From assembly GCA_951406725.2 (NCBI GenBank), contig OX597821.1, forward strand, positions 76,942,001 to 77,006,000: a DNA stretch of 64,000 nt. The letters run 5' to 3'. The DNA is from Octopus vulgaris. Its lineage: Eukaryota. Made by a program: the position numbers and the translations under genes. The stretch's first letter is position 1. Every line of letters starts with the position of its first letter. The notes beneath the pieces were generated by a model. That model saw nothing but the letters and a program-made list of their open reading frames with translations, had not been told where the DNA came from and ran no database searches. Of the stretch, positions 1-55,812 are shown in pieces.

Positions 1-276
1 CTCTCTCTCTCTCTCTCTCTCTCTTCTCCTCCTCCTTTTCTCTTTTCTTGCCTCTGATTCTTTGGTCTCCTCTTCCCCACTCTCTCACATTTCTCTATCT
101 TTCTCACTTTGCACCTCACTGATTCTGTCGCCAAGCCAATACTTGGCACGCTTTCTTTCTTCTCCCCTCTTTAATTTCTTCTTTCTCTCTCTTCTCCCCC
201 CTTTTGTGCCTTTGTCTCTCTTTTTCTCTCTCTCTTTGATTCCTTTGCCCCCTCTTTTTCTCTCTCTTCTCCTCTC
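1..276. repeat. CT-rich low-complexity tract
   Basis: (CT)n and pyrimidine runs; the overlapping ORF calls are low-complexity. Confidence 0.9.
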
Positions 277-399
277 ACGTGACCGCTGGTCAACTAGCCT
301 CTCGGCTTCTGACCACCGCCACGAGAACATCGTTTTCTTCGTCTGCCGAAAAAGCATTTTTTTCCAAATGCGCCAGCTAAGCTAAGTTGTACTGTCTAA

Positions 400-705
400 A
401 GTCGTAAGACACCCGCTGTTTTTGTCCTGTTATTACTATTATTGTTTTTTGTATTTATATTCGTGTGGCATCGTCCGTTTTTCTGTTTGTTTCGTATACA
501 TTCGATCCTTTTTCCAAGAAATCTATTGCTCGTAGCTTAGTTTTTCCTTGTGGCTGGCCGGATCGGAGCGATCTCAAGATTAATCAGCCGAAATTGCGAG
601 GATGATCCGGTTCTTGACTGAAGATTGAAGGCTTCGAATGTCCCGTCCGTGATTTTTATATCGTCTTCTAAATGTTTTACGTTCTTGTCCCAGTTTGTAC
701 TTTTC

Positions 706-712
<7 letters not shown>
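400..712 (+). mobile_element. Non-autonomous element family F1 (probable Penelope pLTR-type), copy 1
   Basis: Collinear similarity to 31915-32248 (AAGACAC..TGTCCTGTTAT..TATACATTCG..TTCCAAG..TAGCTTAG..GCCGAAATTGCGA..GTTCTTGTCCCA). Ends in (TA)n. The 5' boundary is uncertain and may extend to ~280. Confidence 0.75.
552..638 (+). ncRNA. Permuted, pseudoknotted hammerhead-like ribozyme with kink-turn (F1 copy 1)
   Basis: GGCTG/CAGCC precedes GAAA(590). GCGAU/AUUGC forms stem III, with AUC site at 571-573. TCAAGA/TCTTGA forms stem I. CTGAAGA lies at 618-624. K-turn GA(566)/GAG-GA(598-602) is closed by CCGGATC/GATCCGG. Confidence 0.7.
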
Positions 713-791
<79 letters not shown>

Positions 792-15334: not shown

Positions 15335-15525
15335 CCCTACACGCAATTTTTTTCTCTCCTTGTTTCTCTCCTTGTTTCTTTTCTGTGTATCTTTCTGACG
15401 AAGAGCGTAGGCTCGAAACGTAAAAGACTTGTTTTATTTCTATTCCTGAGTGCCATACTAATACATTGTTTGTTCGTACTCCACCTGCCTTCGTCTTTTG
15501 TTTATTTTCGTAAACCTTCCCGTTA
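15335..15525 (+). mobile_element. ~190-bp HHR-bearing short element (family H1)
   Basis: Homologues at 39455-39642 (-), 43380-43568 (-) and 47150-47303 (+); ends in (TA)n. Confidence 0.85.
15390..15427 (+). ncRNA. Minimal type I hammerhead
   Basis: TCTTT-CTGACGA-a-GAGC gtag GCTC-GAAA-CG-TA-AAAGA, with palindromic stem III (ACGU). Confidence 0.8.
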
Positions 15526-21988: not shown

Positions 21989-22030
<42 letters not shown>

Positions 22031-22034
<4 letters not shown>

Positions 22035-22637
22035 CCTCCTAACAGTGAACACGCTTTCTTCCTGCGCTCTTAAAAATCTTTCCTCGTCTAGGCCCAAAAA
22101 AGCCCTCATTGTTTGTTTTCTTGTTTGTTTTTATTTCTTGTACTGTATTTTTTTGTAATTGTATTTTTATTTTGTATTTTATTTTGTAATTTTATTTGTA
22201 TCGTTTTTACGTCCTGTTTTTGTCACATTTTTTCTTTCCTTGTTTTTACCCCTCTGCAAAGGAATTTTATTTAATTCTTTCGCAGGAAGGGCTAGTTCGA
22301 CGAGTCGTGTTCTGTCCTCACCTTCGAAACACGCATGGAGTCGTACTAGGGACAGCTGATGAAGGGGATTTTTCCTTGTGTTGTTTGTCTTGTACTCTGT
22401 TTTTTCTTTTTAAAAAAAGGGTCCTTTTCCATGTTTGTTTTTACGTTTTCGTTTCTCGTTGAGTTCTACGTCTATTTGTGGTGTCCTGTACTCACGTATA
22501 TATATTTATATATGCATGTATATATACATGTAGATGTAGGTACGTACATATATGTATGTATGTATACATATATTTTATTTATTACACTATTGTATGACTG
22601 AGCGCCCTCGCGTCGTTTCGTTTCCTCCAAGTAAGTT
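22031..22637 (+). mobile_element. Non-autonomous element family F2 between two (TA)n tracts
   Basis: T-rich non-coding unit bounded by (TA)n on both sides, carrying the permuted hammerhead. Single copy in this window. Confidence 0.6.
22286..22377 (+). ncRNA. Permuted, pseudoknotted hammerhead-like ribozyme with kink-turn (F2)
   Basis: GAAGG/CCTTC precedes GAAA(22326). CGTGU/ACACG forms stem III, with GUU site at 22309-22311. CTGTCC/GGACAG forms stem I. CTGATGA lies at 22356-22362. K-turn GA(22302)/ATG-GA(22335-22339) is closed by CTAGTTCGAC/GTCGTACTAG. Confidence 0.75.
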
Positions 22638-22794
22638 TATATATATATATATATATATATATTAATAAAAAGAATTCCAACCTTGTCTGATTTTCACGTT
22701 TTATTTACAATCTTATAATGATATATTATAAGATAATATATTATAATTGAATAAAATAAAATGAAATAGTAGAATGTTAAATATTCATTCTGAT

Positions 22795-31861: not shown

Positions 31862-32248
31862 AAGCCGTAAGGCTTGATTTCCACACACACGCTTAATTTA
31901 ATTCGTTCTTACTCGAAAGACACCTCTTGTTATGTCCTGTTATCATTTTTATTGTATTTGTGTAACATTGTCCATTTTTTCCCGTCCTTGTTTTTGTATA
32001 CATTCGCTGCTTTCTTCCAAGGGTCTAATGCTCTTAGCTTAGTATTTCCTTGGGGCTGGCCACATCGGAGCAATCACGAGTATAATAGAGCCGAAATTGC
32101 GAAGATAATCTGGTACTCGACCGAGGAAAGAAAACTTCGAACGATCCGTCCTTGGTTTCTTTGTATCGTCTATATGTATGCTTTCTTGTCTCATTTTTGT
32201 ATCAACCAGCTGTCCGGATGTTTTGCGTTCTTGTCCCATTTTGTATTT
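31862..32248 (+). mobile_element. Family F1 element, copy 2
   Basis: Homologous to 400-712; (TA)n on both sides. Confidence 0.75.
32054..32137 (+). ncRNA. Permuted hammerhead-like ribozyme with kink-turn (F1 copy 2)
   Basis: GGCT/AGCC-GAAA; GCAAU/AUUGC; AUC site; CGAGTA/TACTCG; CCGAGGA; K-turn GA/GAA-GA. Confidence 0.65.
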
Positions 32249-32631
32249 ATATATATGTGTATATGTGTGTGTGTGTGTATGTGTGTGTGTTTGTGTGTTG
32301 TGTGTGTATGTGTGTGTGTGTGTCTATATTTGTGACCACCGCTTGACAATCGGTGTTGGTATGTTTATGTCCCTGTAACTTAACGATTCGGCTAAAAAGA
32401 GATCGATGGAATCTCTTAGGAAAAAAACCTACTGGGGTCGATACATTCGACAATAAATCTTTCAGCGCGGTGCCTCAGCATGACCGCAGTCTAATGACTG
32501 AAACGAGTAAGAAATAAAAAATTACACACATATATATATATATAGATATATGTATGTATGTATGTATGTATAACTATATATATATATATATATATATAGT
32601 AGAAATATGTTTTGAAAAAAATATAAAATAC

Positions 32632-37120: not shown

Positions 37121-39552
37121 TAATAAGATTTAGAGACTGAAATACCTTCACAGATGCATCTGTCTCTCTCAAGCCTACGGGCCTCTTTATCCCAACAACC
37201 TTACAATACTACCTCACCCCCCAGCAGGTGTCAGTGTCGGCCACTTTGAGAAGTAATTACATAGAGTCTGTCAGGAGAATTGGTAGCGGTTCATCTGCGA
37301 CTGTTTGATTCTTGCCATGAATAAGAGGTTAGTTCTGGTTCTTAAAATCTTGTATTACGAAACATATTCTGCATACGGTTTCGGCAGGCCTATGAATGCC
37401 TTGGGCACAAGTCCTTCCGTCAGGCCAAACCAATAAAGAAAGACATCGGTCTACACACACATACACACACACAAGCAGCACTGGGTTACATTTGGTAAGG
37501 CATTAAGCTATATATTAGCTTAGAGGTTCTTAGATAAAAAGAAATATGCCAAAAGTCTCGCAAAAATTAGAAACAAATGTCTATGTCTTGAAGAACCCGT
37601 GAAACCTTAAGTTTGAGCTTGCTCAACTTATGTTTAAATCCAGTATGGAGTATAAGAACACGCATCCGAATACCTACACACCAAAGTGGTTAATTTCAAA
37701 ACGTCCATATGTATGTACACACACACACACGCACGCATATCCGTAAACACCCACACAATGGTAAGTCAAACAACACACGCATGGCTAGACATATATAACA
37801 ATGGAATCATATTATGGCACAAGGACAGCGATGAATGGAGTTAAGCCGGTTACTAGTTCTTCTTTTATCGATCCCTGAAGGAGGAAAAGCAAGGACGAAC
37901 TCGGTGGTGTTTGAACTCAGCGCATAGAGAGCCAGGAGAAATACCGCTAAGCTTCTAGTCCGACTTGCTAATGATTCAGACAGTCCACCGCCATGGGGGA
38001 AGGGGGTGAGTCGATTACATCGACTCCCAGTGCCTAACTGGTACTTATCTTATTGACCCCGAACGGATGAAAGACATAGTTGGCCTCGGTGGAATTTGAA
38101 CTCAGAGCGTATGGACAGACGAAATGCCGCTAAGCCTTTTGTCCAGCGTGCTAACGTTTCTGCCAGCTCGCCGCTTTACAGGCATTCATAACAATGAAAA
38201 CTCAAATTGGTTACACTCTCTGCAAGAAATAGCTCACAGAAAATGCTTGAAAGAACAGACAACAAATAAAGGACACATTGCAAAGTTGTGTTGGTTACAA
38301 CTGGAATGACTTTGATAATAAGACTGATTCATTCGTGTTTGTCTGAGTTAACCGACAATGGTTTAAACCCTATACCATCGCTTGACCTGCTACAATTAGC
38401 AAATGATACCCGACCGTCAAATCATATACCGACTACTTAAAACAGCAGTTTCCTAGACTAATGTAGGGTGGATTGGCGGTGGTGGCACGTGGCTTAGTGG
38501 TCAGGTTATTCGGCTCATGATGGTTAGGTCGTGAGTTCGATTCTTGGCGGCGTGTTGTGCTTTTTGAGTAAGATACTTTATTTCACGTTGCTCGGCTCTA
38601 CTCGGCTGATAAACATGAGTTGTAGCTGTTATTCAAAGGGCCAGCCTTGTCGCACTCTATGTCGCGCTGGATTTCCCTGATAACTACATTAAGGGTCTGC
38701 GTGTCTGTGGAGAGGTCAGCCTCTTGCACGTTAATTTCACGAGCAGGCCGTTTGGTTGATCCGATCAACTGGAACCCTCGTAGTCGCAACCGACGGAGTA
38801 CCCGTTAGTGGTGGAGGATGAAAAATTTGAAAAAACGAAGGATAATCGTTATGCTTAATGAAGACCAACTTTAAGTTTTTAAACTTGTCCAACCCATAAC
38901 GATGGCGAAGAACTATGTTCATGCAAATTCTGTTTTGATTTTCTCCTCATCAATAGAAAGATGACATTGCAAGCGAAGTGGACGATGGAATTTCTCAGTT
39001 GAAGAACCACTGATGTAGTCTTCGTAATGGGTGTTTTTAAATTTCGTCTTTTAAAACAAGAATTAATGGCATAGCCATTTATGGATTGCATTTGGTGACT
39101 AGTCTCTTCGATCAAGACTGACACCACAGCAATAAAAACATCAATAACCTATATGCCCATACACCAAATTATAATTATTTTATTTAAATATAATATTTAA
39201 ACCAATTGTTTGGAAAACAACCACACTCTTTATACTAACAAAACTAAATCATTTTTGATAATTTTAATCCCATATATTATTCCTAAAAATTGAAAATTTT
39301 TCGTGCAGTCTAGACCACAAAAAGATACACTATATGTATACGTATATATATATCTATATCCATATTATATGTATACTTATATATATGTACACTATATGTA
39401 TACGTATATATATATCTATATCTATACTATATGTATACTTATATATATTTATGTAACGGGAAGGTTTACGAAAATAAACAAAAGACGAAGGCAGGTGGAG
39501 TACAAACAAACAAATGTATTAGTATGGCGCTCAGGAATAGAAATAGAACAAG

Positions 39553-39590
39553 TCTTTTACGTTTCGAGCCTACGCTGTTCGACAGAAAGA
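39553..39590 (-). ncRNA. Degenerate H1 hammerhead (CUGUCGA); duplicate at 43478-43515
   Basis: TCTTT-CTGTCGA-acAGC gtag GCTc-GAAA-CG-TA-AAAGA. Confidence 0.6.
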
Positions 39591-39752
39591 TACACAGAAA
39601 AGAAACACGGAGAGAAACAAGGAGAGAAAAAATGCGTGTAGGAGCTCTATATCTATATCTATGCTATATGTATACGTACATATATATATATCTACACTAT
39701 ATGTATACTACATATATCTACACTATATCTATATGTATATATATATATATAC

Positions 39753-39806
<54 letters not shown>

Positions 39807-39973
39807 GTATAGATAACTGAAGAGATGGTGGTGTGGATTTCCACCTCGGCATTCGAAACTCAGAATTTTAACATGGCTACCGAATAATTGTCACATATTA
39901 CATTTACAGATAAATTCCTCTATTTACATAATATTGAGGTCTCTTTCTTTCTTTTGTTATCTTACCGTTTTTA

Positions 39974-40026
<53 letters not shown>

Positions 40027-40086
40027 TTTTTTTCAGAATGAGATAAAAAACCAAGGCTGTGAAGATTTTAGAACATTTATAAATAG

Positions 40087-40133
40087 GTCTTACAGTTGTT
40101 TCCAGGATATTCATTATATCCCTTTATCGGACG
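40087..40133 (-). ncRNA. Degenerate H2 hammerhead (CCGAUAA); duplicate at 44015-44061
   Basis: CCGATAA-ag-GGATAT aatga ATATCC-tg-GAAA-CAACTG-TA-AGAC, inside element 40022-40380. Confidence 0.55.
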
Positions 40134-40704
40134 GTGTGAGAAGATGGCTAAGCAATAGTTAATTTAGATAAGATACGAAATAGAGAGTGAAGTGGAGGAA
40201 TGAAAATAGATGTGAGATATGCAGGGATATTGCATTTGTAGATCCATTATTTAGACAGAATGGTATACATATAAGATTCCAATACCTTGTGAGTAAAATC
40301 CAATAGTATTTATAATTGGTCATTCCAAGTATAGGGTTTGTAAACTGTGTTATTGAATCAAGGGTTTTATTTAAAGATATATATACACACCACCACCGAC
40401 AGCAACAATAACAACATCAATAATGACGACAACAAGAGCAACAACGATAATAATGGACATGCGTATTGTCACGTTCACACAAAACATAGCAAAAACACTG
40501 CATCTTGTAGTTTTACACAAACACGCACAACCATATATGAACATACAATGAAATACGCAAAAGCGCGCGCACTCACATACGCATGCATATGCGCATTCAC
40601 ACAAAACACACGCAGTAAGAGACACAAACACACTGTGCTATGTATAATGATCATACATTCACATGATGCCAATATACTTTTACACACACACACGCAAGCA
40701 CGCA

Positions 40705-40783
<79 letters not shown>

Positions 40784-41231
40784 ATATAAGCAAAATTTTC
40801 GCGCTTCATACACGAAGAACAAATTCACCATAAACGTATTCAAGTAGCCATTATTTATACACATACACACACACACACACACATAAATATAAGCAAACGC
40901 ACACACATACATACGCACGTTGATGGACACATATACACTTGTATACAAACACACACGTACGTAAATACACACACACACACACACACATCCGTAGGCACAC
41001 ATACACACACACGTGCCTGGAGAGAGTGTTTATATACATTTCAATCAAGCAGGCAGCCATCCAAGAGGAATCGTTTGTTGCAATTGAATAATGACAACAA
41101 TGTGACAATGTTTTCCATTTCCTTGTCAAGAGAATTCGCACACCACACACACACACACACACACATGCACACACACATACACACTGAGGTACAGATAAAC
41201 ACACAAGCACACACACGCCTTTATATAATGT

Positions 41232-41280
<49 letters not shown>

Positions 41281-41426
41281 ATGTATGCCAGTATATACAT
41301 AAACACATTACTAATACGCACAAATAAATATACATTTATGCACACACTTCACACAAACATACATATATACGTATGCGTGTATATATTAGTCTATATATAT
41401 ATGCATGTGCGTGAGTATCATGCATT

Positions 41427-41460
<34 letters not shown>

Positions 41461-41633
41461 GACAGACTTAACAAACGCATGCGTATGTGTATGCATATCT
41501 GCTTGTACATAATATATATGTGCGTGTGCAAGCGTGTGTATACATATATATATATATATTATATATATTTATACGAATATCTATCTATATACATGCGTAT
41601 TTATACATTTATACATACATACCCGTATGTATA

Positions 41634-41733: not shown

Positions 41734-43679
41734 CACAAGGACAGCGATGAATGGAGTTAAGCCGGTTACTAGTTCTTCTTTTATCGATCCCTGAAGGAGG
41801 AAAAGCAAGGACGAACTCGGTGGTGTTTGAACTCAGCGCATAGAGAGCCAGGAGAAATACCGCTAAGCTTCTAGTCCGACTTGCTAATGATTCAGACAGT
41901 CCACCGCCATGGGGGAAGGGGGTGAGTCGATTACATCGACTCCCAGTGCCTAACTGGTACTTATCTTATTGACCCCGAACGGATGAAAGACATAGTTGGC
42001 CTCGGTGGAATTTGAACTCAGAGCGTATGGACAGACGAAATGCCGCTAAGCCTTTTGTCCAGCGTGCTAACGTTTCTGCCAGCTCGCCGCTTTACAGGCA
42101 TTCATAACAATGAAAACTCAAATTGGTTACACTCTCTGCAAGAAATAGCTCACAGAAAATGCTTGAAAGAACAGACAACAAATAAAGGACACATTGCAAA
42201 GTTGTGTTGGTTACAACTGGAATGACTTTGATAATAAGACTGATTCATTCGTGTTTGTCTGAGTTAACCGACAATGGTTTAAACCCTATACCATCGCTTG
42301 ACCTGCTACAATTAGCAAATGATACCCGACCGTCAAATCATATACCGACTACTTAAAACAGCAGTTTCCTAGACTAATGTAGGGTGGATTGGCGGTGGTG
42401 GCACGTGGCTTAGTGATCAGGTTATTCGGCTCATGATGGTTAGGTCGTGAGTTCGATTCTTGGCGGCGTGTTGTGCTTTTTGAGTAAGATACTTTATTTC
42501 ACGTTGCTCGGCTCTACTCGGCTGATAAACATGAGTTGTAGCTGTTATTCAAAGGGCCAGCCTTGTCGCACTCTATGTCGCGCTGGATTTCCCTGATAAC
42601 TACATTAAGGGTCTGCGTGTCTGTGGAGAGGTCAGCCTCTTGCACGTTAATTTCACGAGCAGGCCGTTTGGTTGATCCGATCAACTGGAACCCTCGTAGT
42701 CGCAACCGACGGAGTACCCGTTAGTGGTGGAGGATGAAAAATTTGAAAAAACGAAGGATAATCGTTATGCTTAATGAAGACCAACTTTAAGTTTTTAAAC
42801 TTGTCCAACCCATAACGATGGCGAAGAACTATGTTCATGCAAATTCTGTTTTGATTTTCTCCTCATCAATAGAAAGATGACATTGCAAGCGAAGTGGACG
42901 ATGGAATTTCTCAGTTGAAGAACCACTGATGTAGTCTTCGTAATGGGTGTTTTTTAAATTTCGTCTTTTAAAACAAGAATTAATGGCATAGCCATTTATG
43001 GATTGCATTTGGTGACTAGTCTCTTCGATCAAGACTGACACCACAGCAATAAAAACATCAATAACCTATATGCCCATACACCAAATTATAATTATTTTAT
43101 TTAAATATAATATTTAAACCAATTGTTTGGAAAACAACCACACTCTTTATACTAACAAAACTAAATCATTTTTGATAATTTTAATCCCATATATTATTCC
43201 TAAAAATTGAAAATTTTTCGTGCAATCTAGACCACAAAAAGATACACTATATGTATACGTATATATATATATCTATATCCATATTATATGTATACTTATA
43301 TATATATATATGTACACTATATGTATACGTATATATATATCTATATCTATACTATATGTATACTTATATATATTTATGTAACGGGAAGGTTTACGAAAAT
43401 AAACAAAAGACGAAGGCAGGTGGAGTACAAACAAACAAATGTATTAGTATGGCGCTCAGGAATAGAAATAGAACAAGTCTTTTACGTTTCGAGCCTACGC
43501 TGTTCGACAGAAAGATACACAGAAAAGAAACACGGAGAGAAACAAGGAGAGAAAAAAATGCGTGTAGGAGCTCTATATCTATATCTATGCTATATGTATA
43601 CGTACATATATATATATCTACACTATATGTATACTTACATATATCTACACTATATCTATATGTATATATATATATATAC

Positions 43680-43735
<56 letters not shown>

Positions 43736-43902
43736 GTATAGATAACTGAAGAGATGGTGGTGTGGATTTCCACCTCGGCATTCGAAACTCAGAATTTTAA
43801 CATGGCTACCGAATAATTGTCACATATTACATTTACAGATAAATTCCTCTATTTACATAATATTGAGGTCTCTTTCTTTCTTTTGTTATCTTACCGTTTT
43901 TA

Positions 43903-43955
<53 letters not shown>

Positions 43956-44634
43956 TTTTTTCAGAATGAGATAAAAAACCAAGGCTGTGAAGATTTTAGA
44001 ACATTTATAAATAGGTCTTACAGTTGTTTCCAGGATATTCATTATATCCCTTTATCGGACAGTGTGAGAAGATGGCTAAGCAATAGTTAATTTAGATAAG
44101 ATACGAAATAGAGAGTGAAGTGGAGGAATGAAAATAGATGTGAGATATGCAGGGATATTGCATTTGTAGATCCATTATTTAGACAGAATGGTATACATAT
44201 AAGATTCCAATACCTTGTGAGTAAAATCCAATAGTATTTATAATTGGTCATTCCAAGTATAGGGTTTGTAAACTGTGTTATTGAATCAAGGGTTTTATTT
44301 AAAGATATATATACACACCACCACCGACAGCAACAATAACAACATCAATAATGACGACAACAAGAGCAACAACGATAATAATGGACATGCGTATTGTCAC
44401 GTTCACACAAAACATAGCAAAAACACTGCATCTTGTAGTTTTACACAAACACGCACAACCATATATGAACATACAATGAAATACGCAAAAGCGCGCGCAC
44501 TCACATACGCATGCATATGCGCATTCACACAAAACACACGCAGTAAGAGACACAAACACACTGTGCTATGTATAATGATCATACATTCACATGATGCCAA
44601 TATACTTTTACACACACACACACGCAAGCACGCA

Positions 44635-44713
<79 letters not shown>

Positions 44714-45173
44714 ATATAAGCAAAATTTTCGCGCTTCATACACGAAGAACAAATTCACCATAAACGTATTCAAGTAGCCATTATTTATACACATACACAC
44801 ACACACACACACATAAATATAAGCAAACGCACACACATACATACGCACGTTGATGGACACATATACACTTGTATACAAACACACACGTACGTAAATACAC
44901 ACACACACACACACACATCCGTAGGCACACATACACACACACGTGCCTGGAGAGAGTGTTTATATACATTTCAATCAAGCAGGCAGCCATCCAAGAGGAA
45001 TCGTTTGTTGCAATTGAATAATGACAACAATGTGACAATGTTTTCCATTTCCTTGTCAAGAGAATTCGCACACCACACACACACACACATGCACACACAC
45101 ACACACACACACACATGCACACACACACACACTGAGGTACAGATAAACACACACACACGCCTTTATATAATGT

Positions 45174-45212
<39 letters not shown>

Positions 45213-45320
45213 ATGTATGCCAGTATGTACATAAACACATTACTAATACGCACAAATAAATATACATTTATGCACACACTTCACACAAACATACATATAT
45301 ACGTATGCGTGTATATATTA

Positions 45321-45369
<49 letters not shown>

Positions 45370-45443
45370 GACTAACAAACGCATGCGTATGTGTATGCAT
45401 ATCTGCTTGTACATAATATATATGTGCGTGTGCAAGCGTGTGT

Positions 45444-45480
<37 letters not shown>

Positions 45481-45540
45481 CGAATATCTATCTATATATA
45501 TGCGTATTTATACATTTATACATACATACCCGTATGTATA
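41734..45540 (+). repeat. ~3.8-kb direct duplication, copy 2
   Basis: Starts immediately after the gap at CACAAGGACAGCG; differs from copy 1 by a few SNPs and microsatellite lengths. Confidence 0.97.
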
Positions 45541-45624
45541 TATGTATGTATCTATATAGGTTTGTATGTATACATAAGTATTTACACATACACATACACA
45601 CACGCAGGCACGCACACACGCAAT

Positions 45625-55363: not shown

Positions 55364-55812
55364 GTGGCGAGCTGGCAGAAACGTTAGCACGTCGGGCGAA
55401 ATGCTTAGCAGTATTTCGTCTGCCGCTACGTTCTGAGTTCAAATTCCGCCGGGGTCGACTTTGCCTTTCATCCTTTCGGGGTCGATTAAATAAATAGCAG
55501 TTACGCACTGGGGTCGATATAATCGACTTAATCCGTTTGTTTGACCTTGTTTGTCCTCTCGCTGTTTAGCCACTTGTGGGTAGTAAAGAAATAGGTATTT
55601 CGTCTGCCGTTACGTTCTGAGTTCAAATTCCGCCGAGGTCGACTTTGCCTTTCATCCTTTCGGGGTCGATTAAATAAGTACCAGTTACGCACTGGGGTAG
55701 ATATAATCGACTTAATCCGTTTGTCTGACCTTGTTTGTCCTCTCTCTGTTTAGCCCCTTGTGGGTAGTAAAGAAATAGGTATTTCGTCTGCCGTTACGTT
55801 CTGAGTTCAAAT
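55364..55812 (+). mobile_element. SINE family A with a tandem 184-bp unit
   Basis: GTATTTCGTCTGCCG recurs at 55411, 55595 and 55779. Confidence 0.9.

Follow-up and report, generated by a model that had tools for sequence, protein, structure and literature searches.

A kink-turn as the probable hinge of a predicted split hammerhead ribozyme in octopus Penelope-like elements

Three repeat copies in an octopus window

The Octopus vulgaris genome, with 2.8 Gb in about 30 large contigs, abounds in microsatellites. We analysed a stretch of 64,000 nucleotides from contig OX597821.1 (hereafter the window), in which three sites share one layout. These sites are members of three high-copy repeat families (A, B and C), for which a first look at the genome gave 2,432, 2,049 and 1,790 candidates, respectively. 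Copies of the three families are embedded in (TA)n and are without a long open reading frame; some occur as tandem units (about 800 bp in family A, about 830 bp in family B) or inverted pairs, and most are solitary. The window copies, all on the + strand, comprise the following features.

Copy A
22030..22662 (+): copy of the family A element, flanked by (TA)n tracts; a Penelope-like tail, 5'-truncated or non-autonomous
22286..22290 (+): upstream 5' strand of stem II, GAAGG, positions 10.1-10.5; five Watson-Crick pairs with 22321-22325
22292..22301 (+): NC helix, 5' strand; 9/10 pairs with 22340-22349
22302..22303 (+): kink-turn G2n-A1n
22304..22311 (+): C helix/stem III, 3' strand, with unpaired U22305, U16.1 (22310) and H17 (22311)
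22311/22312 (+): predicted cut, from the sequence, hammerhead analogy and the pile-up of 5' junctions
22312..22317 (+): stem I strand 3' of the cut; pairs with 22350-22355
22321..22329 (+): stem II, 3' strand (CCTTC), and GAAA core
22330..22339 (+): stem III, 5' strand, with -1b C, bulge ATG (22335-37) and G1b-A2b (22338-39)
22340..22349 (+): NC helix, 3' strand, with no linker before stem I
22350..22362 (+): stem I strand (22350-55) and CUGAUGA core (22356-62)

Copy B
1..722 (+): family B element, beginning before the window, no long open reading frame
552..624 (+): intact copy; upstream stem II strand 552-556, NC helix 558-565/603-610, GA 566-67/601-02, bulge 598-600, stem I 574-579/612-617, stem II 3' strand 585-589, GAAA 590-593, CUGAAGA 618-624
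573/574 (+): predicted cut

Copy C
31864..32264 (+): family C element copy
32054..32127 (+): decayed copy; upstream stem II strand 32054-58, NC helix 32060-67/32106-13 (6/8 pairs), GA 32068-69/32104-05, bulge 32101-03, GAAA 32093-96, core CCGAGGA 32121-27

All three copies run from GAAA through a stem III of 4-5 bp, a 3-nt bulge, GA and a helix of 8-10 bp into stem I and CUGANGA; on the strand facing the bulge, GA adjoins stem III. Read directly from the sequence, ATG-GA at 22335-39 faces GA at 22302-03 in copy A, GAG-GA at 598-602 faces GA at 566-67 in copy B, and GAA-GA at 32101-05 faces GA at 32068-69 in copy C. The initial annotation had described a consensus kink-turn in all three, each with an 8-10 bp NC stem leading straight into stem I. 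Its letters and coordinates are exact at every site, but the word consensus does not fit all three. Copy B is a clean standard kink-turn, with C-G at -1, U.G at 3b.3n and an NC helix paired at 8/8 positions. The C helix of copy A is interrupted, because U22305 is unpaired after the first pair (C22334-G22304); its 3b.3n pair is G-C, and its NC stem, paired at 9/10 positions, does run into stem I with no linker. The copy at 32101 is decayed: only 6/8 NC positions are paired, the core reads CCGAGGA and the first stem I pair is A.A. Its relatives in family C, unlike the window copy, are intact.

The window holds other repeats as well. Beside copy A lies a 5'-truncated Neptune-like Penelope element (24770-23337, - strand, with a 3' UTR to about 22660) whose single open frame of 478 aa encodes a reverse transcriptase (PF00078) and, at its C terminus, a GIY-YIG domain (PF01541). 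It is recent, as judged by a copy of about 99% identity at another locus (L048). We considered this frame as the coding partner of copy A and rejected it, because it is a separate insertion on the opposite strand. A tandem-repeat profile recurs about 3.9 kb apart (about 39300-41600 and 43200-45600, with an N run near 41.6 kb), which suggests a local duplication, and a 184-bp unit present in 2.2 copies (55411-55812) is SINE-like. Two minimal PLE-type cores in canonical order (CUGANGA - stem II - GAAA) lie at 15395 (+) and 60606 (-). Families B, C and F share a conserved CGAAU..GUC segment after CUGANGA (625-645 and 32128-32150 in the window), which resembles the defunct remnant of a type I core in canonical form and is possibly a clue to origin.

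The kink-turn and the split core

A kink-turn bends a helix sharply, and that of SAM-I lets a loop make a distant contact (PMC5061560, PMC4382518; these two sources, PMC10085705, PMC8557442, PMC4209133 and bioRxiv 2026.07.22.740005 are cited for the portions available to us). Once folded, such a motif has a kink of 50 degrees stabilised by A-minor contacts and binds L7Ae. Beyond families A to C, a descriptor that demanded only the order cut site - GAAA - CUGANGA together with stems I and III yielded families D-K and others from the flanks and from random DNA. The families with a kink-turn represent about four independent lineages (A, B/C/F, D and G), copies of one family not being independent of each other. 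A 3-nt bulge followed by tandem G.A/A.G pairs is present in 99 of 157 distinct parses. GA faces GA in register in 27/27 parsed copies of family A, 28/29 of B, 21/22 of C, 11/11 of D, 4/6 of F and 11/12 of G; the rate in shuffles is 1-4% per family. Where the pattern asked for the bulge-strand GA only, 36 of 37 complete copies have its partner in register; the one that departs carries U at 2n, as in a known non-standard kink-turn type (PMC5061560). The same U at 2n marks a young subfamily (B3, locus L246), in a Kt-23-like non-standard form.

Genome-wide, CGAAA-N7-8-GA-N13-16-CTGANGA matches 18,371 times and the reversed pattern 375 times. The core-spacing pattern without the demand for a bulge GA has 34,245 exact matches against 3,597 in the control; the bulge GA, and with it the kink-turn, is present in about 59% of the excess matches, and about 40% of genome matches are without it. 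Run on 600 kb of random DNA, the descriptor gave 3 strict matches against 0-2 in shuffles, a number too small for enrichment, and the case for enrichment therefore rests on the genome-wide patterns.

The motif stays constant while its flanking helices covary. The NC helix extends 8-10 bp beyond the G.A pairs, with 90.2% of alignment cells paired and 3/8 pairs changed on both sides. The C helix 5' of the bulge comprises 4 bp plus A15.1-U16.1 in families B, C, D and F, and is non-standard in A (interrupted by U22305) and in G (G.A at -1). C-G occupies -1 in 69/99 kink-turn copies. Judged by its sequence, the kink-turn is genuine, and families B and C carry the consensus form.

The hairpin with this kink-turn, together with its flanks, also contains the parts of a predicted hammerhead. 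CUGANGA, GAAA, an NUH triplet and stems I-III are all present, stem II by way of an upstream strand. The five bases that precede GAAA find their partners upstream of the NC helix and not after CUGANGA. This upstream stem II reaches at least 4 Watson-Crick pairs in 27/27 parsed copies of A, 28/29 of B, 18/22 of C, 11/11 of D, 13/13 of E, 4/6 of F, 4/10 of H, 12/12 of I and 2/2 of J, and in 0/12 of G. Among 16 lineage representatives (one of 17 did not parse), 14 form all five pairs; G10.1-C11.1 is invariant and the other four positions each show 3-4 pair types. CUGANGA, GAAA, NUH and the invariant A15.1-U16.1 are kept in 16/16, although the parser demanded them, and the pair counts of stems I and III are partly circular for the same reason. 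An alignment of 13 sequences over four helices has 92.9% of its cells paired and 15/24 pairs changed on both sides, against at most 46.5% paired in slid-alignment controls; F, D and K are partly misaligned and the sequences are related, so these figures are not probabilities. Single-family shuffles give weak p values for the upstream strand (0.002-0.11 where the strand is present).

Could stem II instead form in the usual place? No copy of B (0/29), C (0/22) or F (0/6) can build as many as 4 bp of a canonical stem II after A9. In A, E, I and J an alternative canonical stem II can be drawn, and it is weak (4 bp, of which 2 are G.U and 2 Watson-Crick). Two further elements were considered and dropped. 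A closing helix between the sequence before G10.1 and that after A9 gave own-family duplexes no stronger than cross-family ones (about half of most families were parsed), and only A and I have a strong hairpin directly after A9, which in the other families is weak or missing. Nested minimum-energy folding of the window copies A, B and C does not show the pseudoknots, which the program cannot model. The predicted hammerhead core is split between A9 and G10.1, an arrangement outside the six published permutations. Rfam gave no hammerhead match on copies A and B, as expected from their permuted strand order; over the whole window, the 150 of 292 Rfam matches listed were microsatellite or miRNA noise only. 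Among viral contigs, 88 pattern matches included none with S-G-C pairing.

The probable hinge position and Naiad tails

The spacing from GAAA to CUGA is 27-30 nt in 16/16 lineage representatives, where the parser allowed 24-36. Linkers measure 0-3 nt at the hairpin base and 0-2 nt to stem I. By crude geometry, the helix ends would lie about 30 Å apart with a 50 degree kink (even so, a gap of 25-38 Å) and about 70 Å apart if the helix were straight, which makes closure of a monomer with a kink plausible. The initial annotation had proposed that the kink returns the far end of stem III to stem I. A bending role is supported indirectly, by motif conservation, by the 27-30 nt spacing and by bulges in other phyla, but the proposed geometry was incomplete: the base of the NC helix must also reach stem II, whose 5' strand lies upstream.

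The kink-turn is not the only element found at this position. In 40/157 parses, belonging to families E, H, I and J, AGUA or ACUA (mostly ACUA in E) faces GAA and there is no kink-turn. Sarcin-ricin-type AGUA/GAA is not known to kink a helix, and it is a frequent protein site. A monomer of this class would therefore need another hinge. AGUA/GAA is the sarcin-ricin sequence (PMC1865062), although in families E, H, I and J it may instead be an inverted kink-turn. GAGUAG facing CGAAG at the kink-turn position is a second large class, accounting for about 28 of the first 100 genome matches listed; loci of the AGUA/GAA class include L134, L212, L220 and L283.

Published elements place the split form in context. 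From its sequence, family D is a Naiad tail: it equals the 3' end of Naiad_Obim letter for letter and that of Naiad_Ovul nearly so, on the sense strand (PMC8557442 supplement). Naiads insert into (TA)n and occur as tandem or inverted partial copies, like the octopus families (Craig et al. 2021, PMC8557442). A Naiad 3' UTR adjoins an open reading frame with an N-terminal EN and a C-terminal RT; for A, B and C, we found no linked open reading frame as a coding partner within about 1.5 kb. PMC8557442 describes no hammerhead of canonical form for Naiads, and some of them carry the flag 'HHR_half_core' there. We examined 26 Naiad 3' ends (of 54 consensuses; some records were named by table order) and found by eye the split wiring in six, namely two Octopus elements with the kink-turn and four others. 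These others, from Acropora, Morbakka, Pomphorhynchus and probably Euprymna, have a one-sided bulge of about 3-7 nt in the same place, without GA/GA (also by eye). A crab element reads as type SGC with an intact block C (by eye), four ends from nematodes or spiders follow the canonical order, and 15 of the 26 have no parsable split core within the roughly 600 nt examined. Bivalve and hemichordate Naiad 3' ends (PMC8557442 File S5) share GGGTGT..CAG.A.GATGCT.ACT..TCC..GCACC and have no hammerhead core; this motif is possibly another structured RNA.

Taken together, a bend-prone element at a fixed position, the 27-30 nt spacing and the 0-3 nt linkers point to a geometric need. The hinge is supported and the kink-turn is not universal, so that the bend itself, rather than a host protein that binds kink-turns, is likely to be what matters. 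Most likely, octopus uses the kink-turn to meet a conserved need for a hinge in the split, non-circularly permuted hammerhead of PLE tails.

Cleavage, protein and competing explanations

We think it probable that the kink-turn is the hinge of a predicted self-cleaving hammerhead of non-circular order, split at A9/G10.1, in the 3' tails of PLEs that are at least in part Naiads. By pairing and covariation, stem III, the kink-turn and the NC helix form one long hairpin, its loop holding the predicted cut site, one strand each of stems I and II, and GAAA. The second strand of stem I, with CUGANGA, comes from the 3' flank, and that of stem II from the 5' flank. Both flanks would leave the hairpin base through 0-3 nt linkers and pair with the loop, for which a single molecule would need a sharp bend. 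That bend would come from the kink-turn or, in other lineages, from another internal loop or a plain bulge. For most kink-turn copies, Mg2+ and the two pseudoknot helices would suffice for folding, with no protein, and part of the reverse-transcribed RNA would owe its 5' end to cleavage after the NUH triplet.

Copy ends bear on the last of these steps. 5'-truncated copies cluster 0-12 nt after the predicted cut. Selecting copies by the downstream core alone and curating them by hand (114 copies, 29 without a reference, 6 rows dropped as indels or diverged subfamilies, 1 hand-scored to position 0), we obtained 34 junctions in -40..+15, counted from the predicted bond; 23 of them lie at +3..+15, 7 at -3..+2 and the other 4 upstream. 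An overlapping set of 27 distinct TA-repeat junctions in B and C, tallied by eye, has 6 at the bond, 17 after and 4 before. Untargeted DNA, 1.55 Mb in all, has 10 junctions in -3..+12, none in -20..-4 and 20 in 161 flanking positions, microsatellite matches from +109 onwards having been dropped; the excess has p 4e-5 to 2e-4, with a window chosen after the data were seen. That the peak lies mostly at +3..+12 and not at 0 counts against cleavage as its source, although run-off on a cleaved template with the loss of a few bases at joining would fit this distribution. Many copies span the predicted site, implying that uncut RNA is also copied. The pile-up is an indirect sign of cleavage at the predicted bond. 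Inverted partial copies with junctions at or near the predicted cut or within the core occur at L275, L281, L055 and L209.

The chief rivals differ in what they make of the internal loop and of these ends. It is highly improbable that the structure is conserved but non-catalytic, or a type-SGC ribozyme with an inhibitory upstream strand, the truncation peak then reflecting stalling of reverse transcriptase or microhomology. Such a reading takes support from the fact that cleavage is only predicted, from the portion of PMC10085705 available to us, in which an A9/G10.1 break is unknown in natural hammerheads, and from the AT-rich segment after the cut in B and C, which favours joins to (TA)n. 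However, junctions also cluster in the GC-rich loops of A and I, none falls in -20..-4 of the untargeted DNA, and stalling at the hairpin would be expected to place them at its 3' arm instead; a canonical stem II is out of reach for B, C and F, and the catalytic positions are retained in 16/16 representatives, within the limits set by the parser. Quite unlikely, too, is a ribozyme acting in trans, in which the flanks of one copy dock on the loop of a second in a tandem transcript, which would do away with the need for a hinge and leave the internal loop to some other role. Tandem arrays with units of about 800-830 bp do exist, PLE hammerheads are reported as dimers (PMC4209133), and the AGUA/GAA class has linkers as short as those of the kink-turn class with no evident kink. 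Against this, an open dimer would leave hairpin length free, yet the spacing is held at 27-30 nt; a bend-type element recurs at the same spot across phyla, and most copies are solitary.

It is also unlikely that the motif is mainly a protein site, for Snu13/L30 or the element's own RT-endonuclease, that gates a ribozyme inactive until bound. The RUGAUGA bulge strand of some families is box C-like, and the AGUA/GAA substitute is likewise of a kind that proteins commonly bind. A Poseidon PLE hammerhead cleaves only with its own protein (PMC11167929). The 3b.3n pair predicts whether a kink-turn folds in ions alone or needs protein or tertiary contacts (PMC4382518), and 24 of 99 kink-turn copies, including those of families A and G, carry Watson-Crick pairs there, of the class that needs such contacts; help from a protein is possible, mainly in A and G, although the two pseudoknot helices would themselves be able to supply tertiary contacts. 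Of the remainder, 15 are of other types and 60 belong to the ion-folding class, an assignment that for the U.G copies leans on the class rule, the U.G value being absent from the rule passages of PMC4382518. Together with the 40/157 AGUA/GAA parses, those 60 copies leave unsupported, as a general rule, the earlier suggestion that cleavage might depend on a host protein. The genome matches without a bulge GA, the plain bulges of non-octopus Naiads and an L3 that is mostly G or A, not U, argue in the same direction. Binding by the L7Ae family is possible but would be optional; obligatory dependence on L7Ae/Snu13 is not supported.

A bolder form of the preferred hinge reading is doubtful, but worth stating. 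It would make this the seventh natural hammerhead wiring, a caged monomer with a core open at A9/G10.1 and an interchangeable hinge (the kink-turn in octopus; bulges or other loops in a coral, a jellyfish, an acanthocephalan and a squid), and the missing ribozyme of Naiads, cleaving in vivo and defining 5' ends; in families with Watson-Crick 3b.3n pairs it would be switched by L7Ae-family proteins, the first natural small ribozyme gated by a kink-turn. The open-access literature, to which our search extended, yielded no natural kink-turn hammerhead and no such wiring. If true, the split form would take hammerhead topology beyond the six orders held possible by Eckert et al. (PMC10085705) and would explain why standard descriptors miss a hammerhead in Naiad elements. 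The kink-turn, AGUA/GAA and the plain bulge at one fold position would offer a natural series on the part a kink-turn plays in a catalytic RNA. The truncation peak would be a genomic read-out of PLE ribozyme cleavage, the role of which is still open (PMC8557442, PMC11167929).

How does this RNA compare with known ones? Its kink-turn has the same 3-nt bulge, G1b.A1n and A2b.G2n as HmKt-7 and the SAM-I kink-turn (PMC5061560, PMC4382518), and copy B and family C (GCGAAGA / GGAGC) come close to the Kt-7 strands printed in PMC4382518. It differs from the standard form in lying inside a hammerhead and in a 3b.3n pair that is mostly U.G instead of A.G. Family A has an extra unpaired C-helix base, G has G.A at -1 and B3 has U at 2n, and sister families carry other motifs in its place. 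The minimal type I hammerheads of PLEs and non-LTR retrozymes (PMC4209133, bioRxiv 2026.07.22.740005) likewise occur in PLE terminal repeats and tandem non-coding units, but they have canonical order, a weak stem III and act as dimers, whereas the octopus form has a stable stem III and a non-circular order. The closest relative is HRIMA-1 type-SGC (Eckert et al. 2023, PMC10085705), which shares the order cut site - GAAA - CUGANGA, a 3-5 nt linker from stem I to stem II and two core pseudoknots. That work takes block C as uninterruptible. The octopus RNA follows the block order S-G-C without the intact block C (a stem II strand 0-2 nt from CUGANGA): its block C is interrupted, the 5' strand of stem II lying upstream, and its stem III is extended by the kink-turn and the NC helix. 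The terms 'kink' and 'k-turn' have no matches in the available portion of the text and supplement of PMC10085705. The type-SGC examples of that paper come from metatranscriptomes, whereas the octopus form is present in tens of thousands of copies in an animal genome. Its fold is a new combination of known parts.
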